NCBI GenBank assembly: GCA_030615855.1
Contig: JAUWYL010000002.1
Location: forward strand, 1,526-65,525
Origin: a bacterium
Lineage (GTDB): Bacteria > UBP18 > UBA7526
Length of the DNA: 64,000 nt
Direction of reading: 5' to 3'
Shown piece after piece: positions 5,202 through 38,969 of this stretch. A program made the translations under genes and the position numbers. Below the pieces are notes generated by a model, which saw nothing but the letters and a program-made list of their open reading frames with translations, ran no database searches and was not told where the DNA came from. How positions within the stretch are numbered: position 1 is the stretch's first letter; each line of letters starts with the position of its first letter.

Positions 5202-5606
5202 GAAGTAGATCTATAAGCCGGGTCCTGTAAACGCTGATTACCGCAGATTTTTAGCGCTGATTACCGCAGATTAAATCCGCGGCCTTCTGCGTATCGATCC
5301 GCGTAAATCCGCGTCTCGATGATCATTTGTCTAGTCCGACCATTACTGGACGGATCAAGCAGCCAACCCGGGAATAATAACGAGACGGGCCGTCTCTCTC
5401 CCTCTATTTGGCCTTGCTCCGCGTAGAGATTGCCTCGTTTCACCCCTCCCCGGCAAAAATCGGGGAGGACTCGTCTCTGTGGCTCTTATCCGTCCGTCCC
5501 TTTTGGGGACGGAGACGGGTGTTACCCGCTACGCTGCCCTGTGGAGCCCGGACTTTCCTTCCGTCCGTCATACTTATGACGGACGGACGATCATCCGATC
5601 TACTTC
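5202..5606 (-). ncRNA. rnpB: RNase P RNA, type A, with an enlarged P19 region
   Basis: P1 pairing GAAGTAGATC/GATCTACTTC, conserved GGAAAGTCCGGGC, GGGTGAAACG, AATCTCTACGCGGAGCAA and 3' ACAGGACCCGGCTTATA; own promoter and terminator. Confidence 0.95.
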
Positions 5607-5641: not shown

Positions 5642-5691
5642 CCCCGCCCCTTTTACTTTGAAGTATTTCTCCGTAGCAGAAAGGGGCGGGG
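5642..5691. repeat. 50-bp inverted-repeat element resembling the ends of the GIY-YIG element
   Basis: CCCCGCCCCTTT...AAAGGGGCGGGG, flanked on both sides by TCAA (5638-5641, 5692-5695). Confidence 0.65.
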
Positions 5692-7674: not shown

Positions 7675-9375
7675 TTATTCTATGCCCCAGTCGATGTAGC
7701 TTCTGAGTCTCTTACTCCTTAAGGGATGGCGAAGCTTTCTTAGGGCCTTGGCCTCGATCTGACGTACCCTCTCCCGGGTAACGTTGAAGATGGTCCCCAC
7801 CTCTTCTAAGGTCCGGGGGGAGCCATCGTCTAGGCCAAAGCGAAGCCTCAGCACCCTTGCCTCCCTCTCAGATAGTGTGGATAGAACCTTTCTTATTTCT
7901 TCCTGGAAGAGTGAGAAGGCGGTAACCTTGGCTGGGGAGGCAGCCTTCTCATCCTCGATGAAATCCCCGAATAGACTATTCCCCTCCTCTCCGATAGGGG
8001 TCTCCAGGGAGATGGGGTTCTGGGAGATTCTCAGTATCTTCTGCACTTTGACTAGGGGGAACTTCATGACTTTTGCGATCTCTTCTGGGGTGGGCCCCCT
8101 TCCCATCTCCTGAACCAGATGGCGTGAGGTGCGGATCAGTTTATTGATAGTTTCGATCATGTGGACCGGGATCCTTATGGTCCTCGCTTGATCAGCAATT
8201 GCTCTAGTAATGGCCTGCCTTATCCACCAGGTAGCATAAGTAGAGAACTTATATCCTCGTTTATATTCAAACTTGTCCACCGCCCTCATGAGACCTATAT
8301 TCCCTTCCTGAATGAGGTCTAAGAAGGAGAGTCCGCGATTCACATATCTCTTGGCAATGGAGACCACCAGTCTCAGGTTGGCCTGAACCATGGCCGTCTT
8401 TGCTCTATGTCTCTTCTCCTCCTCAACCTCAATCTTTCTAGCCAGCTCTTTTAGGGTAGCGGCCTTGTGGCCGGTCTTCCTTTCTACCTCCCGGATCTTG
8501 GCCAGAAGTTTTTTGATCTCACCACTTGTCTTCTTAAGTTTTTCATAATCTATTCTCTTTCTTGGTTTTTTCCTTAACTTTTTCAGGCGCTTCTCCATCT
8601 TCTCATAAGAAAGGCCACATCTTCTCTCAATCTTCTTAATCTCTTTTTCCATCTCTTCTATTCTTTGGACATACTTCAGCACCTTCTGAGCGATTCTTTC
8701 TACTTCCCGGGGTTGAAGGTTGAGCTCCTTTAGGCTCTGAGCAATTCTCTTCTTCTCTACTTTTATTCTCTCTTTTAATTCTTCCCCTTTCCTCTTCCCC
8801 ATTCTTTCTTGGAGGAGGCGCTTATTGGCTCGAGCAATAGAGTTCTTTGCCCTTTTAATTCTTCTCGTCAATTGCAAGACCTTCTGGATCATTTTCTCTT
8901 CCTCTTCCTCAATGGTAATAGCCCTCACCAGAAGGTGAGAGAAGTTTTCTATTCTCATTCTTCTCTTTTCCAGGCGAGTCGCAGTGGAGAGGACCTCATT
9001 CGGGGTAAGAGAGATCTTTAGTACAATCTCCTTCAATCTATCCTGGGTCTCTTCTATTCGCGTTGCCAGGGCAAGCTCCTGGGGACGAGTAAGAAGGGGG
9101 GTTCTGCCCATCTGGGTGAGATACATTCTTACCGGGTCCTCAATCCTTCCCTCTGCCGGGGGCAGTTTCTCTAAAGGAATAGGCCTCTCTTTTAGATCCC
9201 TGACCGCTATCCCTTTCTTCTCTAAAGCAATTAGAATATCATCGATTTCGCGGGAGGCGATGACCTTTGGGGGGAGGGCCTCATTCAGTTCATCCCAGGT
9301 GAGATACCCTTTCTTCTTACCTAAGCTAACCAGTTTCTTTAGAATACGGGAAGATATCTTTTTCTTCTTAACCAT
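7675..9375 (-). CDS. rpoD: RNA polymerase primary sigma factor
   Basis: Region 1.1, [63 protein letters not shown]; start set at ATG 9375 after GGAGGG. Confidence 0.97.
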
Positions 9376-9389
9376 TCTCCCTCCTTGTA

Positions 9390-9550
9390 AACGCTGATAC
9401 TTAATGCACTTCGTTTGCCTTAAGATGTTGCCGCTGATATAGTGCGCAGATTGCCGCTGATAATCTGCGGTCATTGCTTAATATTTATGCTCTCTCGGAT
9501 GCCAACGAAGCGCATCCGGCATCTGCGTTTTGATCTGCGGTCATCTGCGT
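9390..9550. repeat. Intergenic repeat cassette (CGCTGAT/CGCAGAT arm, ATCTGCG arm)
   Basis: cgctgata..cgctgata..cgcagat..cgctgata opposed by atctgcgg..atctgcgt..atctgcgg..atctgcgt; internal hairpin CGGATGC..GCATCCG. Confidence 0.7.
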
Positions 9551-9551
9551 A

Positions 9552-11324
9552 TTAGCCGCGAAAGTGCTTTAAAAGTTCCAGATAGCGCATCCTCTTTTCT
9601 TGGCTAATAGCCCCCTTCTTCTCCAGAACCTCTCTAATCTCTTTCTCTAATCTCCGATACTCCAACTTCAGCTTACTATCCTTAATGGCCTTTATTAGAT
9701 CATTGAGTACTCTCTCCTTTCTGGGATACTCTTTCTTCTCCATGAGAAGGGAGGTGACCATCTGGCTCAAATCGGGATCCTTTAACTGGTCCATTATCCT
9801 AGCTGGGGAAAGAGGTTCTTCTCTGGTGCTCAAATCGAAGATTGCCTGGGCAATCCTTTTATACTCCGGATGAACAAAATCATCTGGTCCGAGCTTCTCC
9901 TGGACTAAAGGGATAAGGCTTTCATCCTTCAGAAGAAGTTGTATGAGAGCGGCCTCTGCTTTAAGGAGGAGATTGGAGGGTCTAGAGCCTACCCGCAGGG
10001 CTTCTTTTGAGAAAGGACGGCCGCTTCTTATCTTCTTCAATTCTATCCAGAGGATTTCCTCCTCTAAAGAGAGCTTTTGGGAAAGCCACTTTATCTCCTC
10101 CCTCTGGCGGATGAGGTTCCTCTCTTTGGCTATGGTGGGAAGAAGATCCTCTGCTATAGCAATCTTTCCCTCTACCTTCTTCGGATCAAACCTGTCCTTG
10201 GCCAGCTGAAATCTCCACTCAATTAAAGGGACGGCCTGGAAGAGGAGGGCTTGGGAGAGAAGCTTAGAGAAGGCCTCTTTGCCCTTATCTTGGACGAAGG
10301 TATCTGGATCATAGCCTCTGGGAAGGGAGGTTACCTTTACCCTTACTCCCTGCTCCAGAAAGAGATCCAAGCCCCTTAAGGTTGTTTGAATTCCAGCCAC
10401 ATCGGCATCATAGAGCATGGTGACCTGAGTGGAGAATCTTTTTAAACGATAGACCTGGCCAGGGGTCAAAGAAGTCCCCATAGAGGCAATAAAATTCTGA
10501 AATCCTTCCTGATGGGGCAGGATGACGTCCATATAACCCTCAACGATTACCGCTTCTCCCTTAGAGCGGATAGCCTCTTTCGCCCAGTTTAATCCATAGA
10601 GCGTCCTACCTTTATCATAGATCGGGGTCTGAGGAGAGTTGAGATATTTTGGCTCACCATCACCCAATACCCTCCCTCCAAATCCCACCACCCTATTCTG
10701 AAGATCAAAGATGGGGAAGATGATTCGATTCCAGAAGTAGGGCTTCCCTTGAGATGTTAGGAGTCCCCCTTTTACTAATAATTCCTGGTCAAAGCCTTTC
10801 TCCTTAAGCCAGGATAGGAGCCCATTCCAAAAGGAAGGGGCATAGCCCAAATTGAATTTTTCAACCGATTCCTTCTTTATCCCCCGGCCTCTGAGATATT
10901 CATAAGCCTTTTTCCCTAAAGGATGTTTTAAGAAAAGATTATGAAAGTAATTAGCAACCAATCCGTTCAACTGATAGAGTCTCTCTTTTTCCTTGGCCAG
11001 GATCTCTTCTTTCCCTGTCTTAGTGATCTCTGGGAGGGAAATCCCAGCCTTCTTGGCCAGCCTCCTCACCGCTTCCGGGAATGAGATATTCTCATACTTC
11101 ATCAGGAAGTTGAAGACATTCCCCCCGATTCCACAGCCAAAACAATGAAAGATTTGCTTCTCCGGACTGACTATAAAGGAGGGAGTTTTTTCTGTATGAA
11201 AGGGGCAGAGAGCCTTGAAGTTCCTTCCTGTCTTCTTTAAGACAACATAATCCCCAATAACAGAGACGATGTCGTTTGCTTCCCGGATTCTATCTAAGAG
11301 GGCATCAGAAATACGATCACTCAT
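9552..11324 (-). CDS. dnaG: DNA primase
   Basis: Zinc finger CPFH..EKTPSF..CFGC, TOPRIM VEGYMD and YDADVAG. Confidence 0.97.
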   Translation of the reverse strand: MSDRISDALLDRIREANDIVSVIGDYVVLKKTGRNFKALCPFHTEKTPSFIVSPEKQIFHCFGCGIGGNVFNFLMKYENISFPEAVRRLAKKAGISLPEITKTGKEEILAKEKERLYQLNGLVANYFHNLFLKHPLGKKAYEYLRGRGIKKESVEKFNLGYAPSFWNGLLSWLKEKGFDQELLVKGGLLTSQGKPYFWNRIIFPIFDLQNRVVGFGGRVLGDGEPKYLNSPQTPIYDKGRTLYGLNWAKEAIRSKGEAVIVEGYMDVILPHQEGFQNFIASMGTSLTPGQVYRLKRFSTQVTMLYDADVAGIQTTLRGLDLFLEQGVRVKVTSLPRGYDPDTFVQDKGKEAFSKLLSQALLFQAVPLIEWRFQLAKDRFDPKKVEGKIAIAEDLLPTIAKERNLIRQREEIKWLSQKLSLEEEILWIELKKIRSGRPFSKEALRVGSRPSNLLLKAEAALIQLLLKDESLIPLVQEKLGPDDFVHPEYKRIAQAIFDLSTREEPLSPARIMDQLKDPDLSQMVTSLLMEKKEYPRKERVLNDLIKAIKDSKLKLEYRRLEKEIREVLEKKGAISQEKRMRYLELLKHFRG

Positions 11325-18023: not shown

Positions 18024-20000
18024 CTATTCTTTCTTCTCTTCTTTCTTTTCCTCTTCCTCTTTGTACTCCGCCTCTACCACATCTTCCCTCTTCTTCTCCT
18101 TGGGTTTCTCTTCTTTGGGTTTTTCTTCTCCCGCTTTAGCGGGGGGCCGCTCTGGCGGTGGCTTCGTCTTCTTTGCTTGTTCAGCGGCTTTCTTCTGTGC
18201 TTCTTTGTAGACCTCCTCTGCCAATTTATGGGAGGCCTTTCCCAGCTCTTCAGAGGCTTTCTTAATTTTTTCTGTATCCTTTCCTTTCAGGGCCTCTTTA
18301 AGGCTATTCAAAGCATCCTCAATCTTCTTTTTTTCAGAAGCGCTTACTTTGTCCCCATAGTCCTTTAAGGACTTCTCTACTGAATAGACTAAGGTGTCTG
18401 CCTGATTCCTTACCTCTGCCTCTTCCTTCCTCTTCTTATCCTCAGCCTCTTTTGACTCGGCTTCCTTGACCGCCTTCTCAATCTCTTCCTCCGTCATCTT
18501 CTGAGAGGTGATCTTTATGGACTGCTCCTTTCCCGTTCCTAAGTCCTTGGCAGAGACATGGACGATGCCATTAGCATCAATGTCAAAGGTAACCTCAATC
18601 TGGGGAATGCCTCTGGGTGCTGGAGGAATGCCCACCAGATCAAACTTCCCTAAGGATTTATTATCTATGGCCATCTGCCTCTCTCCCTGGAGGACATTGA
18701 TAGTTACCGCTGGCTGATTATCTGCTGCGGTAGAGAAGATCTGGGACTTCTTGGTGGGAATGGTGGTATTCCTGGAGATGAGGGGAGTTCTGATTTCTCC
18801 TAAAGTCTCAATGCCCAAGGTAAGAGGGGTGACATCCAAGAGTAATACATCCTTCACTTCTCCAGTCAATACCCCGGCCTGAATGGCGGCTCCCTCTGCT
18901 ACAACCTCATCCGGATTGACTCCCTTATGGGGCTCTCTACTAAACACCTTCTTGACCGTCTCTATTACCAGAGGCATCCTGGTCTGACCACCAACTAAGA
19001 TTACCTCATCAATATCAGAGGGAGATAGTTTGGCATCTGCCAGGGCCTGTTCACAGGGTCCGATAGTCTTCTCAACGATATCTGAGGTCAGTTGCTCCAG
19101 CTTGGCCCGGGAGAGTTTTTTAACCAAATGTTTAGGCCCGGTCTGATCTGCAGTGATGAAGGGAAGGTTAATCTCTGTCTCCAAGGTAGTAGATAACTCG
19201 CATTTCGCCTTCTCCGCGGCCTCCTTCAATCTCTGTAAGGCCATTCTATCCTGTTTTAAATCAATCCCCTGCTCTTTTTTGAACTCCTCACAGAGCCAGT
19301 CAATTACTTCCTGATCAAGATCATCTCCTCCTAAGTGAGTATTCCCATTGGTAGATTTTACCTGTAAGACACCCTCGCCCATATTCTCTAAAATAGAGAT
19401 ATCAAAGGTTCCCCCTCCCAGATCGAAGACCGCAATCTTCTGCTCTTTCTTCTTATCCAATCCATAGGCTAAAGAAGCGGCGGTGGGTTCATTGACAATC
19501 CTCAAGACCTCTAAGCCAGCGATCTTACCAGCATCCTTTGTTGCCTGCCTTTGATCATCTCGGAAATAGGCAGGAACCGTGACCACTGCTTGGGTAACTT
19601 TCTCTCCTAAATATCTCTCTGCCTCAGCCTTCATCTTGGCCAGAATCATACCCGATATCTCGGGAGGAGAATAGACTTTGTCCCTGACTTTTATCCTTAC
19701 ATCGTTATGAGGACCTTCTACCAATTCAAAGGGTAGTATCTTCTTATCTCTATCTACTTCCCCCTCATGGAAGCGACGACCCATCAATCTCTTAATAGAG
19801 AAGACCGTATTCTCTGGATTGGTGACGGCCTGCCTCTTGGCAGGAAGACCCACTAGCTTCTCTCCTGTCTTAGTAAAGGCGACCACAGAAGGAACAGTCC
19901 GCGGGCCTTCAGAAGAAGCGATGACTGTGGGCTTTCCTCCTTCCATAATAGAGACTACAGAGTTTGTGGTTCCTAAATCAATCCCAATTACTTTAGCCAT
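18024..20000 (-). CDS. dnaK: Chaperone DnaK
   Basis: [37 protein letters not shown] motifs. Confidence 0.99.
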
Positions 20001-21875: not shown

Positions 21876-23651
21876 TCACTCTACTTTTAGGATGCTTAAG
21901 AAGGCTTCCTGGGGAAGAGAGACCTTTCCAATTCTCTTCATTCTCTTCTTACCCCTCTTCTGCTTCTCCAAAAGCTTCTTCTTCCGGGTGATATCTCCTC
22001 CGTATAAGGGAGCGGTGACATCCTTTCTCAAAGCTTTTACTGTCTCCCGGGCGATGGTTTTCTTCCCTATCGCCCCCTGTATGGCAACCGGAAAGAGGTG
22101 CTGAGGAATGACCTCCTTTAATCTTGCTACCAACTCTCTTGCCCTATGATAGGCCTTTTCCTTATGGGTAATGAAGGATAATCCTTCCACCTTCTCATTA
22201 TTTAAGAGGACATCGACCTTTACCGAATCCGTCTTTCGATAACTGATATGCTCATAGTCAAAGGAGGCATAACCTCGGGAGACAGACTTTAACCTATCGT
22301 AGAAGTCGAGTATCACCTCAGATAGGGGGAGTTCATAGGTCAAAGAGGCGGTATTTTGGTCCAGATACTTAGTATCTTTATATACTCCTCTTCTTCCCTG
22401 AACTAACTGCATAATGGGTCCTAAGTATTCGGCGGGAGTAATGATGATCGCCTTAATATGGGGCTCCTGAATCTCTTTAATCTCATTGGGGGAGGGAAGT
22501 TTAGAAGGGTTCTCTACCCTTTTGGTCTCGCCTTCTCTGGTGATCACCCTATAGACTACGCTGGGTGCCGTAGTTATCAGATCCAGGTCATACTCCCTCT
22601 CCAATCTCTCCTGGACGATCTCCATATGTAAGAGGCCTAAGAATCCGCATCTGAAACCAGGGCCCAAGGCTGGGGAGCTTTCCTCTATATAACTAAAGGA
22701 AGCGTCATTCAGTTTCAGTTTCTCCAGAGCCTCCTTCAGTGATCCAAAATCCTCGCTTCTTACAGGATAGAGGCTGGCGAAGACAAAGGGCTTCACCTCC
22801 TTATATCCGGGAAAGGACTTCTGGGCAGGATTTAAAGTGCTGGTAATAGTATCCCCCACCTTGGCATCTTGAAGGTTCTTTATATTCGCCATTAGGTAGC
22901 CCACTCCACCTGTGGAAAGCCCGTCTACCTTTCTCATCTCTGGAGAAAAGATCCCCACTTCATTCACTTCAAAATCCCTTCCGGTTCCCATAAGCCTAAT
23001 CCTATCTCTTGGTTTAATGGAGCCCTGAATGACCCGGATATAGACCACTACCCCCTGATAGGGATTATAGATAGAGTCGAAGATCAAGGCCTGAAGGGGC
23101 TTATTGGTCTCCCCTTTTGGTGGAGGGATCCTCTCAACTATTGCTTCCAGGACATCCTCTGTTCCCATTCCCTTCTTTGCACTGGTAAAGATGGGGTCCT
23201 TTAATCCCAGGACATCTTTTATCTGTTTCTCTGTCTCCTCTGGCCGGGCATTGGGAAGGTCTATCTTATTTATAATGGGGATGATGGCGAGGTTGGCTTC
23301 CCTTGCTAAGTAGGCATTGGCTAAGGTCTGGGCCTGAACCCCCTGGCTGGCATCGATGATCAATAAAACTCCTTCACAGGCAGCAAGAGACCTTGAGACC
23401 TCATAGGAGAAGTCCACATGGCCCGGGGTATCTATGAGATTTAAGATATAGTCCTTGTACTTCAGTCTCACTGCTTTGGCCTTTATGGTAATCCCTCTCT
23501 CCCTTTCAAGTTCCATCTCATCCAATACCTGCTCCCTCATCTTTCTGGGAGGAAGGGTCTTGGTATATTCTAACAGTCTATCCGCCAAGGTGCTCTTCCC
23601 ATGGTCGATATGAGCAATAATGGAAAAATTCCTAATGCGTTCTGTGGACAT
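21876..23651 (-). CDS. lepA: Elongation factor 4 (LepA)
   Basis: [46 protein letters not shown]. Confidence 0.98.
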
Positions 23652-26590: not shown

Positions 26591-26665
26591 GAAAGCCCCG
26601 CACTTTTTTAATATTCATTTCTTTAGGTTGCTACTTTGAATAGATAAAAGGTGCGGGGTTCTTTT
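26591..26665. terminator. Hairpin between convergent genes; arms match the GIY-YIG element ends
   Basis: CCCCGCACTTTTT (26596-26608) ... AAAAGGTGCGGGG (26646-26658), A-rich on the left and T-rich on the right; could act as a bidirectional terminator. Confidence 0.6.
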
Positions 26666-34479: not shown

Positions 34480-36444
34480 TCAATCTTCAATGGTAGGCTT
34501 AGTAGGCTCTGCTACTATTTTATAAACCCGGGTTTCCCTGCCCGCCATCGCCTGCGGCTCAGGCCGTTGGCGGGCAGGTTCAAAGGTCTTAATAAGTCTT
34601 AACCCCTTTTGCTTGCTAACATCTGGTACTTCACCAATCACTGGGACATCCTCACTCTTCAGATACTTATCAGGATGAAGAATGACATACTTTGCCCCTA
34701 AATACTTCAGGATGCCTGGGGTCTCTGGCTTTAAGATATCAACGATCTCCTTTCCCACTTTATCCGCATAAGTACCAGAAAGGGTACCGTTGACTAATCT
34801 CTTCTGATGGATCCTCTGCCAGAATAGATACTCATAATCGGTCTCTATGGGATATTCAACAATAGTAAAATCGCCTTTCTCTTTAGAGAGCCATTCATAA
34901 ACGGGAGGAGGATGGACTGCATTAACCATTGGTGCGGGTAGAGTAGGAGCGAATTCAATAAAAACGAGTACGAAAACTATAGAAAGAAAAATTCTTCTTT
35001 TCTTCATACTCCTTATCTTCTCTAAAATTGAAGCAAGGCCTATCCCTGCTAAAACACTTACACATAACATAACCACGATACCAAAGCGGGCATAGACCCG
35101 AAACATGGGTAGAACCTTATACATAAAATAAGAAGGAAAGAGAATGCGAAAAGGACCGATATCAGTCCAGGGAGAATGGGAAAATATCAAAGCCACAATC
35201 GCCGCAAAGAGAAAGAAGCTCACCCCCCGCTGGCACCGTGTAACGAGTAACGGGTCTACTTGTTTCCTTGTTAACTTATTAACTTGTTTACTTGTCAACT
35301 TGTTAACTTGTTTACTTGTCAACTTGTTAGCTAACTTTGACTTTCTTCGCCATTCTCGAACAGCAACAATAGAAAGCACAATTCCCACCCACCCAAGATA
35401 AAGAGTATGCTCTGTGGGATGACCACCATACAAAGGATTCTTAATAAATTTTTTAGTGAATTCTCCAAAGAAAGGATTATCCTGAGAAGGCAAGAGATAG
35501 CCTAATAGTCGGGCAGAGTTGCTGAAGAGATCCCGCATAGGACGGACATATCTTTCAGGAGTAGCAAATATATTTCGGAAAGAGTAATAAGCCGGAGGTA
35601 GAATAATGGCTGCTGCCACAACTACTGCCACTAAAATTACTTTAAAAGAATGAAAGCGTGTCCCCTTGTTAACTTGCTTGCCCTGTGATCCCGAAGGGAT
35701 TTTTCGAGGTCTACTTGTCAACTTATTAACTGGATAACTTGTCAACCCCCGTCCCCTGAAACCCTGCCATATCTGCCACGCTATAAATGCAGCAGTCAAT
35801 ACCAGTATAAAATATCCATATTGGTAGTCAGAGAAAGTATTTAAAGCAAAGAGTCCCCCGCAAAGAATAGCCCATTCATAACGCCTCTCTTCATCTAATT
35901 TAGAGAGGGCAAAAATATAGAGGGGCATCCATTGGATATTGGCCAAGGCTATATGCTGAGAGGCATGAACAAGGTGATAGGGACAAAAGGCGTAAACAAT
36001 ACCCGAAAAGAGACTGGCTAATTTATTCTTAGTAAAATAGTGGACTAAAAGATACATAGTTACTGAGGAAAGTAAAAAAGTAAGGAGGATAATAAAATTA
36101 TAGGCAAATATTTCGTTCACTAATATTGATAGCCACTTGCCCATAAAGTTTATTACTACCAACTGTAAAATATGACTATAATCTGCTCCAAAGGGAGAAG
36201 CTATGATAGGAATGAAACGAGGTGAAACATGATGTAAATAGGCATACTTGAGCCACCAAAAACCATGCACAGTACCTAAGGGGTCTCCCCCCGGGCCATA
36301 GAGATAGCTTCGCATTTTAAAAATAAGGGGATAAGTAACTATGAGACTTAAGAAGGTAAAGAAAGCAAAAATAAAGATTTCGGTTCGATGAAATCTAAGT
36401 TTGAGTAGTGGTTTTTTCATACCATTTTTCTCCATCGGAGACAA
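34480..36444 (-). CDS. Multi-pass membrane protein, GT-C/YfhO-like, with three in-frame repeat inserts
   Basis: GDP..W, FAYN, AFCPYH, FRVYARF, YLFWQRIHQKRLVNG, LKYLGAKYVILH pattern; start codon uncertain. Confidence 0.62.
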   Translation of the reverse strand: MSPMEKNGMKKPLLKLRFHRTEIFIFAFFTFLSLIVTYPLIFKMRSYLYGPGGDPLGTVHGFWWLKYAYLHHVSPRFIPIIASPFGADYSHILQLVVINFMGKWLSILVNEIFAYNFIILLTFLLSSVTMYLLVHYFTKNKLASLFSGIVYAFCPYHLVHASQHIALANIQWMPLYIFALSKLDEERRYEWAILCGGLFALNTFSDYQYGYFILVLTAAFIAWQIWQGFRGRGLTSYPVNKLTSRPRKIPSGSQGKQVNKGTRFHSFKVILVAVVVAAAIILPPAYYSFRNIFATPERYVRPMRDLFSNSARLLGYLLPSQDNPFFGEFTKKFIKNPLYGGHPTEHTLYLGWVGIVLSIVAVREWRRKSKLANKLTSKQVNKLTSKQVNKLTRKQVDPLLVTRCQRGVSFFLFAAIVALIFSHSPWTDIGPFRILFPSYFMYKVLPMFRVYARFGIVVMLCVSVLAGIGLASILEKIRSMKKRRIFLSIVFVLVFIEFAPTLPAPMVNAVHPPPVYEWLSKEKGDFTIVEYPIETDYEYLFWQRIHQKRLVNGTLSGTYADKVGKEIVDILKPETPGILKYLGAKYVILHPDKYLKSEDVPVIGEVPDVSKQKGLRLIKTFEPARQRPEPQAMAGRETRVYKIVAEPTKPTIED

Positions 36445-36466: not shown

Positions 36467-37639
36467 TCACCTGGTCTTATGCTTTTTTATAAAGCCAGGT
36501 AAAATTAGCAGCAATAATGTTACAATTGCCATGGATATAACGATGAGTCTGGGCAGATACGAGGTTTTTTCCCTCTTCTCCGGAGCCACTTCAGGAAGTG
36601 CCTTCTCTCTTTTCGGTGCTTTTCCTGCTTGCGGTGCTTCCTTTGGTTGCAGTGCTTCTTCTTTCCCGAACACTTTCGCCCAAACCGGCTTCAAACCAGC
36701 AATAGTGAAATCTAAGGTAACATAATTACCTTTTGTAGTAGTCTTGCTGGTATAATCAATCTTCTCAGCAATAAACTTTCTCTTTATGGCCTCTCCTAAA
36801 AACCGGGCATCGTCATGGATAGCGGGCAGAGCCTCCTCTTTAGTTGCCCGGAATACTATCTTTCCCTTAGCCCGAGCCTCATCTATCAGGTCGAAGGAGA
36901 GTCCAATGGAAACCATGGATTCCGCAGATAGGAAGAGGGTCATGTGCCAATCCTCTTCCCATTCCCGCAAAGTCTTAACGAAGCGGGCTTCTTTATTATT
37001 AACATAGACAAAGCCGTCCCGGGCTTCAATAGCTTTTGTCCTCATTCTAATGAATTCTTTATCTTCTACTATTGAACCGCTCTTGCCTTCTGCCACATCT
37101 ATTGCTTTCTTCACGACCTCGACTCCCGTACCCAAGATGAGCCTATTGCCCAGCCGGGTATAGGCGCTAATCTCTTCCGGATCTCTTGTCTGGCGATAGT
37201 GACTATAGATGATGTTATGTTTCAGATGGGTTGTCTTCACCATCCTCTCCCCGGGCTTCTTGAGGAGGGTATCCAGAGATTTGAGGAAAGCCTCAATCTT
37301 TTGCGGTTGGTCAGGAGGAAATTCGACAACTACAATGTAGTGGGAAATTCCTTCCGCGCTTAAGGGGAACAGGGCAGCTGCTACTTCAATAATGTCCAGT
37401 TGATACATCTCCCCTACTGCTCTCTTATTGACTTCACTTTCTTCACGCATTAATTTTTCTCTTTCCAATTCCATAAGAAAGGATAGCCCAGGATTGGTCT
37501 TAATCTTACCCAATGAAGAGACGACCATTGCCTCCCGGGGAATAAGGTCCTGGGCCCCTTTGCTCTCCACATCTGCTTTCTGTGATAAGCCAAAGATAGT
37601 AGTCCAGATAATCAAAGTAATGATTAGAATCTTCTTCAC
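36467..37639 (-). CDS. Exported protein with C-terminal TM anchor, unknown function
   Basis: Start placed at GTG 37639 (MKKILIITLIIWTTIFGLSQKA, signal-peptide-like); C-terminal LIVISMAIVTLLLLILPGF; partly similar to 38013..38969. Confidence 0.6.
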   Translation of the reverse strand: MKKILIITLIIWTTIFGLSQKADVESKGAQDLIPREAMVVSSLGKIKTNPGLSFLMELEREKLMREESEVNKRAVGEMYQLDIIEVAAALFPLSAEGISHYIVVVEFPPDQPQKIEAFLKSLDTLLKKPGERMVKTTHLKHNIIYSHYRQTRDPEEISAYTRLGNRLILGTGVEVVKKAIDVAEGKSGSIVEDKEFIRMRTKAIEARDGFVYVNNKEARFVKTLREWEEDWHMTLFLSAESMVSIGLSFDLIDEARAKGKIVFRATKEEALPAIHDDARFLGEAIKRKFIAEKIDYTSKTTTKGNYVTLDFTIAGLKPVWAKVFGKEEALQPKEAPQAGKAPKREKALPEVAPEKREKTSYLPRLIVISMAIVTLLLLILPGFIKKHKTR

Positions 37640-38012
37640 CCCGCACCTTTTAACATATTCACCCCGCACTTTTTATATTCCTCTTTTCCCGTGTTCTTGT
37701 CAAAAGTGCGGAGTTCAAACTGTTGTTTATTCTATGTTTTAGCTGTCCGTAGGCTTTACCAAAGTATTTAAGACTTTTTTCTCTTGCTTTAGCATCCTTT
37801 AACAAAAGGAAACTTTCGTAGTAAACTAAAGCCCAAGGTGCATATTTCTTAGTATACCCAACCAATCCTTCGTTATGTTCTTCCAATCTACGCTTAATAT
37901 CATTCGTGTAACCAACGTAAAGTGAAGAATTTTTCTTACTCTTCAAAAGATAGACATGATACATATGTCCCTCTAAGTAAAAGAACCGGACGAATACCAA
38001 AAAGGTGCGGGG
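37639..38012 (-). mobile_element. Putative mini mobile element carrying a GIY-YIG nuclease
   Basis: 13-bp terminal inverted repeats CCCCGCACCTTTT (37639-37651) / AAAAGGTGCGGGG (38000-38012), a second end copy at 37662-37674, and TCA on both sides (37636-37638, 38013-38015). Confidence 0.65.
37659..37964 (-). CDS. Small GIY-YIG nuclease family protein
   Basis: MYHVYLL, LYVG, KRRLEEHN, YTKKYAPWALVYYE, AKAREKSLK; ATG 37964 after GAGGGA. Confidence 0.9.
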   Translation of the reverse strand: MYHVYLLKSKKNSSLYVGYTNDIKRRLEEHNEGLVGYTKKYAPWALVYYESFLLLKDAKAREKSLKYFGKAYGQLKHRINNSLNSALLTRTREKRNIKSAG

Positions 38013-38969
38013 TCATCGTTTCTTTTCCTTTACTAAGAGGTTATGGATCACTGATTTCAGCCCAGAAAGCTTGAAGTTTAGTTTAAGATGATAATTGTCC
38101 ATTATTATTTCTTCCTCAAAGTTAAGTCCGTTTGCCCGACAGAGGCGTTTCAGGAGTCCGGCTAAGAAGTAAATATCCTCTCTCTCTTTTTTGCTATCTA
38201 CTTTCTCTCTATATTTAAAGAGAAGGCTTCCTCTTAGGCTATCAGCATCAAGGATATCGAAGTAGCCTCCCAGATAGTCCAAGAAGTTTACTGTAGGGAA
38301 TATGGCATAGGCACTCTTTTTTTCTAATCTCTTCACAATTCGGGATAATTCAGAATGGCTATTGTCAATGAAGAACATGGCTTCTCCGGTTCTCTGGAGC
38401 CCCTGAAAATCACTCAAGGCTTCTCCAGAGATAAAGAAAGTCTCTTTCCCGTATTGATCCAGGGAGGCCTTGAGCAGAGAAAGATTATTTGAAATAAGGG
38501 CAATGTCTCTAAAGAGGGTGTAGGAAGAGACTTCATCATCGTTCCCCGAACCCTTCAGGTAAAGGATGGAGCAACCCCTATAATTGATTCTCTCAAAGGG
38601 TTCTCCGTCAATCATTGCATTATCTATTGACTTTCTGAAGAGTCGGGAAATTTTGATGAGCCTACTATTCTTAACCAAGAAGAGATAGTCCGGTTCTTCT
38701 CTGCTAACCGCCAAGGTAGCAAGGGTAGCGATTTCCACCGGGCCCAGAAGACGTGCCCCCCACCTAATCTTCCAGTCGAAGTTATTAATCAATTCAGATG
38801 TCCCGAGATCCTTCAGACCTATCTTTAAAGTGACGAAAGCGAATGTCTCCTGGGGAATGAGCTGGGTTATTTTAATCTCCTTGCCTGGAAAGAAAAGCCA
38901 AAGGAAGAAAGAGGCTGATAATACAATCAAGACAAGTAGGAGACTTAAGAAAATTTTCTTAGACTTCAT
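38013..38969 (-). CDS. Hypothetical protein with N-terminal TM anchor
   Basis: 318-aa ORF in the operon; ATGA overlap with the upstream gene; shares LIP.E and SSYT/SAYT segments with 36467..37639. Confidence 0.65.
   Translation of the reverse strand: MKSKKIFLSLLLVLIVLSASFFLWLFFPGKEIKITQLIPQETFAFVTLKIGLKDLGTSELINNFDWKIRWGARLLGPVEIATLATLAVSREEPDYLFLVKNSRLIKISRLFRKSIDNAMIDGEPFERINYRGCSILYLKGSGNDDEVSSYTLFRDIALISNNLSLLKASLDQYGKETFFISGEALSDFQGLQRTGEAMFFIDNSHSELSRIVKRLEKKSAYAIFPTVNFLDYLGGYFDILDADSLRGSLLFKYREKVDSKKEREDIYFLAGLLKRLCRANGLNFEEEIIMDNYHLKLNFKLSGLKSVIHNLLVKEKKR

Follow-up and report, generated by a model that had tools for sequence, protein, structure and literature searches.

A small GIY-YIG nuclease gene between inverted repeats and flanking TGA copies, a candidate element with the anatomy of a transposon

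The window analyzed here is a 64,000-nt stretch of bacterial DNA (contig JAUWYL010000002.1, positions 1,526–65,525; GTDB lineage UBP18, UBA7526), in which a gene for a small GIY-YIG nuclease, bounded by inverted repeats, is found between two genes for DUF3352-like proteins. All coordinates of this 374-nt unit (37639–38012) and of its two neighbors refer to the minus strand. The upstream gene (38013–38969, 318 aa) shares an ATGA with the preceding gene at 38966–38969, an overlap reported in a first-pass annotation of the window and supported by the coordinates of the open reading frames (ORFs). It ends with the TGA at 38013–38015, which is at the same time the left copy of a flanking direct repeat. 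The left terminal inverted repeat (CCCCGCACCTTTTT, 37999–38012, tip C at 38012), the core of which was found in 38 independent loci, adjoins this stop codon, and the right terminal inverted repeat (AAAAGGTGCGGGG, 37639–37651) ends at 37639, next to the right TGA (37636–37638). The terminal repeats are perfect over 13–14 nt (CCCCGCACCTTTT/AAAAGGTGCGGGG); an inverted-repeat search returned 14-nt arms at 37638–37651 and 38000–38013 that are 100% complementary and 348 nt apart, which confirms the earlier description of 13-bp inverted ends with TGA on both sides. With up to three mismatches allowed, the repeat motif occurs six times in the window, while 0.37 occurrences are expected, and none of 100 shuffled sequences reached six.

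The sole sizeable ORF of the unit (37659–37964, 101 aa), with a Shine-Dalgarno (SD)-like GAGGGA 4 nt upstream, matches the GIY-YIG family PF01541 (E-value, 7.3 × 10−16; 58.7 bits against a cut-off of 22.6). The first-pass annotation took it to be all that the repeats enclose; however, an ORF-less hairpin copy of 52 nt (CTCCGCACTTTT…AAAAAGTGCGGGG, 37662–37713, identified by the inverted-repeat search) is nested near the 3′ end of the ORF, with TGAA direct repeats at 37714–37717 and 37658–37661. Related elements that have no nested copy read AACAGTCTGAATATGGTAAAAGGTGCGGG at this place (L139, L144; L002), thus the nested copy is a later insertion. It accounts for the duplicated right end and for a 15-aa tail of the protein, so that the ORF stands at 101 aa, but the original gene is one of about 85–90 aa. 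As stated earlier, no DDE or HUH transposase is present inside the 374-nt unit, and there is no room in it for a further gene beside the GIY-YIG ORF. No recognized transposase of the DDE, HUH, serine, tyrosine or Cas1 type was found in the element, the sole ORF of which is a GIY-YIG domain of 85–101 aa, and a Pfam scan returned GIY-YIG and T5orf172 alone, with no HUH protein. Rfam covariance models gave no matches at E ≤ 1 on either strand of 37300–38300, and no promoter- or terminator-like site was found on the coding strand of the window's copy. In the predicted RNA fold of the whole insert, the 14-bp terminal stem closes the insert in both the minimum free energy (MFE) and centroid structures (z = −4.65). 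A reading of the repeats as a terminator was rejected, with the T-run located inside the stem and not after it, and an integron attC site, Xer/dif site, CRISPR repeat, and group I or II intron were ruled out on sequence and size alone.

At its right end, the element rebuilds the start of the downstream gene (36467–37639), which encodes a DUF3352-like secreted protein of about 390 aa. The terminal G at 37639 and the duplicated TGA supply a GTG start codon (37639–37637), as the first-pass annotation had proposed, and this codon is in frame with a signal-peptide-like sequence, KKILIITLIIW…, that corresponds to the N-termini of the orthologues (MKKIL in locus L055, M(M)KKKIL in L054). The AGGTG of the right repeat, located 4 nt before the rebuilt start, looks like an SD-like sequence. 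Excision in silico of the element together with one TGA leaves AAGGAAAAGAAACGATGAAGAAGATT, in agreement with the earlier reconstruction. Gene callers (L001 gene table) begin the downstream gene at the in-frame GTG 37669, within the nested mini-element, and the called product of 400 aa has a false 10-aa N-terminal extension, MRGEYVKRCG (37637–37669, minus strand).

A site free of the element was found in related genomes. The upstream protein has seven homologues in a collection of 5.8 billion proteins, and the contigs of four were examined. In L054 (upstream protein 76% identical), the two genes are directly joined at an empty site that reads …AAATGATGAAGAAG… / …GAGAAGAAATGATGAAGAAGAAGATT… / …GAGAAGAAATGATGAAGAAGAAGATTTTAATC…, and BLAST analysis showed that its flanks abut at the position of the ~374-nt unit of the window. 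L056, from a genome with a LepA 95% identical to that of the window, is unoccupied as well and reads …AAGTAGATGAAGAGT…. In L052 and L053, the closest homologues of the upstream gene, the downstream gene is absent altogether, so these loci are uninformative on the site. The unoccupied site anticipated by the first-pass annotation is therefore present in two relatives, but the L054 allele reads TGATGA. Judging by the aligned letters, the site can be read either as a single TGA accompanied by a 3-nt indel in an AAG repeat, in which case the counterpart of the first TGA of L054 is CGA (window) or TGG (L055), or as an insertion between two pre-existing TGAs; the family-wide evidence described below favors duplication.

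The same element occupies the same site in L055 (upstream protein 73% identical). The elements of the window and L055 are identical at 367 of 374 positions (98.1%) in a gapless alignment, while the upstream and downstream genes are 76.5% and 79.4% identical, respectively. In consecutive 60-nt segments, identity rises from 80–90% to 100, 98, 95, 98, 100, 98 and 97% and falls to 82%; the change coincides exactly with the tips of the repeats. Of the 30 bases adjoining the element on the left, seven differ, hence there is no co-conversion tract, and the right flank of L055 is closer to the empty L054 than to the window. The element-free L054 is about equidistant (80–83%) from the window and L055 genomes. 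Since four of the six differences between the two nuclease ORFs are amino-acid changing, the low divergence reflects recent common ancestry and not strong constraint. Other pairs of elements that share a site show the same pattern (element 89.7% versus flanks 73–75%; element 88.4% versus flanks 80–81%). These comparisons show that, where diverged genomes carry the element at a shared site, their divergence is much older than the element. The possible histories are that the same site was entered twice, that the element was precisely lost from L054, or that a circulating copy replaced the resident ones, and none of them is possible without a discrete mobile unit that ends at the repeats.

At least 197 relatives of the nuclease were found, mostly 85–90 aa in length and many from metagenome-assembled genomes (MAGs) of Omnitrophota, from which the nearest relatives come as well. 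An unbiased inverted-repeat search around each gene, performed for 50 loci taken from GTDB species genomes and another 80 from JGI metagenomes, revealed the terminal motif (C/T)CCCGCACCT…AGGTGCGGG(G/A), i.e., YCCCGCACC…GGTGCGGGR, near almost every protein at least 58% identical. Ends of the CCCGCACC type were found in Omnitrophota, Planctomycetota/Sedimentisphaerales, Uhrbacteria, Saccharibacteria, Parcubacteria, Thermodesulfovibrionia and Nitrospirota, and dereplication left 38 independent insertions with the common core Y-CCCGCACC…GGTGCGGG-R, as had been expected of other GIY-YIG copies. Complementary tip bases are seen in 34 of the 38 (C…G in 17, T…A in 17). Inward of the conserved ~10-nt tip, the arms vary by lineage (TTTCAAGCAC, TTTTATGTCT, TATCCTGACA, TTTTGAGCAT, and others), and these lineage-specific inner sequences still pair, complementarity being perfect in 38 of 57 distinct arm pairs and extending up to 23 nt. 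The outer ~10 bp of the ends are thus kept in sequence, the inner part in complementarity alone, a pattern that points to selection on the pairing of the ends and not solely on a protein-binding sequence. The nuclease ORF invariably takes up the interval between the arms, in a single orientation, and protein clade and repeat type change together: proteins of at least 58% identity have CCCGCACC, and remoter clades have CCCGTTAGAAA, CCCGTGAGATAA or CCCACACC.

Direct repeats of 3–4 nt were found outside the tips in 21 of the 38 insertions (TGAA in 14, TGA in four, TTGA in two, and TGGA in one). TGGA is present on both sides in L057, L058 and L070, and TTGA on both sides in L011, L033 and the window copy at 5642–5691; therefore, the repeat is copied from the target and is not a part of the element. 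The target duplication proposed for the nuclease unit of the window is in this way corroborated across the family, except that the usual repeat is the 4-nt TGAA and not TGA; the repeat of the window copy has 3 nt, and the length of the duplication, 3 or 4 nt, is not strictly fixed. In several of the insertions that have no exact repeat, the left copy is one base off, e.g., TAA for TGA, with the stop function kept. Near-identical elements are found by different genes (L066 and L071, 96.5% identical), so that copies at different sites as well as presence/absence polymorphism (empty L054 and L056) are on record. A tblastn search of phage and plasmid collections yielded only homologues below 45% identity, with no sign of a phage or plasmid vector.

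The rebuilding of gene signals seen at the window locus is a family trait. In 23 of the 38 insertions, the tip purine and TG supply the ATG or GTG start of an ORF of 50 or more codons downstream. Among the genes with rebuilt starts are leuD (three genomes), nrdR, the gene for a response regulator, and many genes for MK… or MN… proteins. In 19 of the 38, the stop codon of the upstream ORF is found at the left repeat, or a TAA derivative of it is. Many homologues end in …SLNxxKGAG*, i.e., the right repeat is read through (AAA GGT GCG GGG) up to a stop at the duplicated TGA, and the nuclease ORF is therefore coupled to the downstream gene via an RTGA overlap. All elements with a recognizable neighbor are co-oriented with it, and the places of insertion are overwhelmingly ATGA(A) stop/start overlaps, start codons, and TTGACA boxes.

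Copies without an ORF were searched for by scanning for the core at a spacing of 20–130 nt. This revealed 21 ORF-less units of 27–137 nt with the same tips and mostly TGAA or ATGA flanks (TTGA in some), three of which are inside the 64-kb window. Besides the nested one, these are a copy at 5642–5691 (minus strand; CCCCGCCCCTTTT…AAAGGGGCGGGG), which belongs to a variant subfamily (CCCCGCCCC variant) and has TTGA on both sides, and a copy at 26596–26658 (plus strand; CCCCGCACTTTTTTAATATTCA…TTTGAATAGATAAAAGGTGCGGGG), the subterminal sequences of which match the full-length ends. The end of the 5642–5691 copy abuts a sigma70-like promoter, TTGACA-17-TATAGT (11 of 12 matches), and L011 and L033 are similarly flanked by TTGAC(A). 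About 50 nt from this copy, at 5560–5590, there is a perfect GC-rich palindrome (TCCGTCCGTCATA…TATGACGGACGGA) that is unrelated in sequence to the repeats of the element. The subterminal sequences AATATTCA…TTTGAATA are common to miniature copies and full-length elements; the ORF-less copies are small and have the repeats and the duplication of their parent, as do MITEs (miniature inverted-repeat transposable elements). Miniature units often form tandem arrays in which one TGAA is shared, as in L066, L069, L071 and L072, and at L139–L142, which represent one locus in four related metagenomes, the full element is followed by one, one, two, and at least two tandem 46-nt units, respectively. Such variation in unit number could result from re-insertion into a regenerated target or from repeat slippage. 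The genes downstream of L139–L142 encode a nucleotidyltransferase/HepT toxin–antitoxin pair.

Sister subfamilies target SD sites, −35 boxes, and the 5′ ends of tRNA-Pro genes. A more distant subfamily, in Patescibacteria, has repeats (G)GCCCGTTAGAAA… and in nearly all cases occupies the 5′ end of a tRNA-Pro gene (L028 2356–2427, L024, L018, L016, L112, L118, L120, L123, L127, L129). The last ~6 nt of its right repeat (CGGGCC/CGGGG) constitute the 5′ end of the tRNA, and the original 5′ fragment (e.g., CGGGCCATC) is displaced and left upstream of the left repeat. Elements of the CCCCGCACCTTTTGACCTT… subfamily (L085–L088, L091/L092, L099) have the flanks (G)GAG|…|GAG and are located in the Shine-Dalgarno sequence, a few bases before ATG, where their G-rich tip rebuilds GGGGGAG; two different copies are present on one 443-kb contig (Ga0208789_1000014).

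Two further GIY-YIG genes are bracketed by palindromes as well. On Sinorhizobium meliloti pSymB (CP090106.1; L137), a distant GIY-YIG coding sequence (1492–1782) between hflX and mazG has the palindromic units CTCATCCCTGTG…CACAGGGATGAG at 1302–1422 and 1811–1925, members of a family of repeats with 40 or more copies on each replicon that was found in 202 Rhizobiaceae records and that we take to be possibly of the RIME type; we know of no mobilizing enzyme assigned to RIME-type repeats. On plasmid p1 of Planktothrix agardhii (L138), a GIY-YIG coding sequence (1492–1776) between a MmeI-type restriction-modification gene and the DISARM gene drmA has a ~60-nt hairpin copy (AGTGAAACGAAGAATCTCT…AGAGATCCTTCATTTCGCT) on each side, at 1342–1400 and 1885–1942.

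The relatives of the nuclease in the PDB, as detected by phmmer, are 1zg2 (E-value, 1.3 × 10−5), 1ywl (4 × 10−4) and SLX1 (0.03). An AlphaFold (AF2) model built on 44 homologues has a mean predicted local distance difference test (pLDDT) score of 91.7, and Foldseek ranks 1–10 are occupied by 1zg2, Slx1 and 1ywl, with I-TevI and UvrC at rank 12 or lower. The best folds, 1zg2 and Slx1 (6seh, 6sei, 7cq2; also 7cq4), superpose with a root-mean-square deviation of ~2 Å at 30–37% identity, and some of these Slx1 structures are bound to branched DNA (6seh, 6sei, 7cq4). Among the 44 homologues, Y16, G18, H30, E50, R61 and E62 are invariant, N31 is nearly so, and conservation of Y5 and R26 is 90% or higher. 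The Y-Y-R-H spacing is the same as that of the catalytic residues Y6, Y17, R27 and H31 of I-TevI, and the conserved residues presumably have the catalytic roles known for those of I-TevI and UvrC. The protein looks like an active, structure-specific nuclease of the Slx1/UPF0213 type with an intact active site. The homologues of 85–90 aa consist of the catalytic core and one long helix, with no further DNA-binding domain. GIY-YIG enzymes are hydrolytic, and to our knowledge no strand transfer or DNA joining has been ascribed to them. According to the literature, Slx1 is a structure-selective nuclease that acts on flaps, junctions and stem-loops (PMC7017083), and this preference fits a stem formed by the paired arms. 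In a 2006 survey of the superfamily, the stand-alone proteins of prokaryotes are assigned to the Slx-1 cluster, and a single recent case of GIY-YIG insertion in an HsdR gene is mentioned, with no repeat-bounded element described (PMC1564403). The genes listed in a 2025 study as transferred from Patescibacteria include one for a GIY-YIG protein (PMC12455944). No description of a repeat-bounded GIY-YIG element was found in the literature searched, which is no proof of novelty, as subscription journals were mostly outside the search.

Taken together, these data make it very probable that 37639–38012 is a discrete mobile element that duplicates TGA(A). With less assurance, though still as the likelier state of affairs, we regard it as a very small transposon-like element that consists of two inverted repeats and one nuclease gene of about 85–90 aa, with no promoter or terminator of its own, the movement of which is driven by the nuclease. 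Only tentatively can a broader proposal be put forward, i.e., that such elements form an unrecognized class of autonomous prokaryotic transposable elements, with about 290 bp the smallest known, in which the only protein, an 85-aa Slx1-type nuclease, serves as a transposase acting on the end hairpin or panhandle, and the ends of which have evolved to regenerate what they interrupt (stop, SD and start; Shine-Dalgarno; −35 box; tRNA-Pro 5′ end). By extension, and equally tentatively, abundant orphan families of palindromic repeats in cultured bacteria, such as the RIME-like hairpins around the S. meliloti GIY-YIG gene, may be mobilized by GIY-YIG enzymes as a second system similar to that of repetitive extragenic palindromes (REP) and their REP-associated tyrosine transposases (RAYT).

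A mechanism may be outlined as follows. The nuclease would be the mobility enzyme, as suggested by its association with the repeats and by the joint change of protein clade and repeat type. It may recognize the stem of the paired repeats, be it the panhandle of a single-stranded DNA or a cruciform, and cut at the base of the stem, beside TGAA. If the cut at a TGAA target were staggered and the host then ligated or filled in the DNA, the 3–4-nt duplication would result, and precise excision would likewise be possible; a circle or hairpin junction would read …GGTGCGGGG[TGA]CCCCGCACC…. The nuclease of a promoterless element would be expressed only from co-oriented insertions in transcribed operons, which would explain the orientation bias. 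Insertions would be nearly harmless because the stop, an SD-like sequence and the start are rebuilt, and the terminal stem may have an added role in the mRNA.

Several points weigh against this interpretation. As many as 17 of the 38 insertions have no exact repeat, many of which are explained by TGA>TAA changes or by the target of another subfamily, and the window copy at 26596–26658 has no flanking direct repeat. At the window site itself, the TGATGA empty allele makes duplication and insertion between existing TGAs indistinguishable. TGA(A) is too short to explain the occupancy of the same site in two diverged genomes, and its re-use needs either a longer recognition sequence, or few tolerated sites under selection, or gene conversion by incoming copies. 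The count of copies in the host covers 64 kb of its genome. The first-pass annotation proposed a transposase-free element in which a stand-alone GIY-YIG nuclease moves with duplication of a TGA target; the discrete insertion is well supported, but the causal role of the nuclease is deduced from association. Finally, host ligase or repair must be invoked because GIY-YIG enzymes are not known for strand transfer.

That last property also favors the first of the alternatives, in which the hairpin repeats are the real mobile unit, similar to a MITE or REP, moved by an unlinked transposase, with the GIY-YIG gene as a passenger or a captured gene. The ORF-less copies move or multiply without the gene, and in S. 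meliloti the repeats by the GIY-YIG gene are so abundant (at least 40 per replicon) that flanking there could be due to chance. However, an unlinked transposase does not account for a gene–repeat association that holds across phyla with the repeat type tracking the protein clade, and no other gene recurs in the 2–5-kb flanks of ~130 loci, according to gene tables that were not exhaustively scanned. A passenger gene is also hard to reconcile with an ORF that takes up the interval between the arms and in many cases draws its C-terminus and stop from the right repeat and the duplicated TGA. Overall, we consider this explanation unlikely.

It is quite unlikely that the gene is a free-standing homing endonuclease gene of the T4 Seg type, spread by double-strand-break repair, with the repeats being incidental or regulatory. 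The GIY-YIG fold is a classical one for homing endonucleases, and homing would suit the occupation of the same site in two diverged genomes by an element much younger than its flanks. Nevertheless, identity drops from 98% to ~80% exactly at the tips, with no trace of co-conversion, and on account of this sharp break homing by homologous recombination was rejected. The protein has no DNA-binding domain past the ~85-aa catalytic core, and dozens of unrelated loci with 3–4-nt target duplications and defined inverted ends, as well as nested, tandem and miniature derivatives, are not expected of a homing gene.

The predicted terminal stem raises the question of a role at the RNA level. A long-range helix might loop out the insert and keep translational coupling, with mobility being secondary or past, and the conservation of the stem would on this view be accounted for better than by transposition; we regard this as very unlikely as the main explanation. 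The 14-bp stem does close the insert in the predicted MFE and centroid structures with the stop and start juxtaposed at its base, the right arm has an SD-like AGGTG, and arm changes are compensatory. Still, the target duplications, the empty site, the young elements, and the ORF-less copies in non-coding places (promoter −35 box) are left unexplained, and a sequestered start codon is expected to hinder initiation. A role of the stem in RNA is compatible with a mobile element as an addition to it. Finally, the view that this is an ordinary, vertically inherited, non-mobile small operon gene with flanking hairpins, for which its co-orientation, tight packing in the operon, and annotation as a ‘GIY-YIG nuclease family protein’ might speak, is hardly credible given the empty allele in a close relative, an element 98% identical between flanks of 77–82%, and dozens of unrelated sites.

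Among known systems, the REP/RAYT (REPIN) system of Gammaproteobacteria is similar in that a single small nuclease-type gene is found between inverted palindromic repeats, that many ORF-less hairpin doublets are scattered through intergenic DNA, and that the enzyme presumably recognizes DNA secondary structure. However, RAYT is a Y1 HUH enzyme of the IS200/IS605 type that forms a covalent DNA intermediate, whereas the enzyme here is a Slx1-type GIY-YIG hydrolase; a 3–4-nt duplication, younger copies at the same site in diverged genomes, and start rebuilding are undescribed for REPINs, and all are present in the GIY-YIG family. IS200/IS605 elements (e.g., IS608) resemble the GIY-YIG elements in their very small size, end hairpins, short target (TTAC for IS608, TGAA here), and possible insertion without gene disruption, but they are ~700 bp or more, have subterminal hairpins with no terminal inverted repeats or duplication, and use Y1 HUH, while the GIY-YIG elements are of ~290–375 bp, with true inverted termini, a duplication, and no HUH. 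The classical features of insertion sequences present in the family are the inverted repeats, the short target duplication, and presence/absence polymorphism with copies at different sites; a recognized transposase is missing. T4 segA–G and I-TevI share with the elements the GIY-YIG core, the selfish gene between host genes, and recurrent occupation of the same site; in contrast, homing enzymes have a C-terminal DNA-binding domain, targets of 14–40 bp, and spread by homologous repair with flank co-conversion, with no inverted repeats, target duplication or miniature derivatives.

The Slx1/UPF0213 proteins (Escherichia coli YhbQ, Bacillus subtilis YazA; 1zg2, 1ywl, 6seh) are the closest by sequence and predicted fold. 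They are regarded as repair or housekeeping proteins, though, and the Slx1 of eukaryotes carries a RING/PHD domain and depends on Slx4; neither a mobile-element role nor flanking repeats are described for the group in PMC1564403 and PMC7017083. Bacterial MITEs (Neisseria Correia, ERIC, RPE) are alike in length (40–140 nt), inverted repeats, short duplication, intergenic location, and the expression signals that they can provide to neighbors, but the known ones have a parent insertion sequence of the DDE type and a TA target, whereas the ORF-less copies here have a GIY-YIG parent and TGAA. Penelope-like retroelements are the sole well-established transposable elements with a GIY-YIG endonuclease, one related to Slx1/UvrC; however, they are eukaryotic and encode a reverse transcriptase, and their nuclease only nicks the target for priming, while the GIY-YIG elements have no reverse transcriptase.

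Elsewhere in the window, rpoD (7675–9474), dnaG (9552–11324), dnaK (18024–20000) and lepA (21876–23651) are found. LepA has relatives of 79–95% identity, and its identity to the proteins of any named phylum is 67% at most. The minus-strand ORF at 34480–36444 encodes a YfhO-like membrane protein with a short tandem peptide repeat, …ANKLTSKQVNKLTSKQVNKLTRKQV…, at 35150–35400, and the related locus L052 appears to have no DUF3352-like gene adjoining the YfhO-like gene.

In summary, the unit at 37639–38012 is a GIY-YIG-associated selfish element with transposon anatomy, and it would represent a new class if the nuclease proves to be the transposase. What is new here is the usual TGAA duplication, the recognition of the 101-aa ORF as a gene of ~85–90 aa lengthened by a nested copy, and the targets of the sister subfamilies. 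The family, which is apparently undescribed, is widespread across many phyla and may comprise the smallest self-contained transposable elements known. The splitting of a coupled gene pair with the stop, ribosome-binding sequence and start all restored amounts to an unusually complete strategy of harmless insertion, and it affects gene calling through systematic distortion of start sites, operon prediction, and the reading of ‘conserved’ small ORFs in MAGs. With its short defined target and tiny protein, the element might also attract interest as a tool in genetics. Should the nuclease drive movement, a new enzyme class would join the few known prokaryotic transposases, and the minimum size of an autonomous mobile element would be lowered; it would also provide a function for the large, unexplained group of UPF0213/YhbQ/‘GIY-YIG nuclease family protein’ sequences that are annotated in thousands of genomes.

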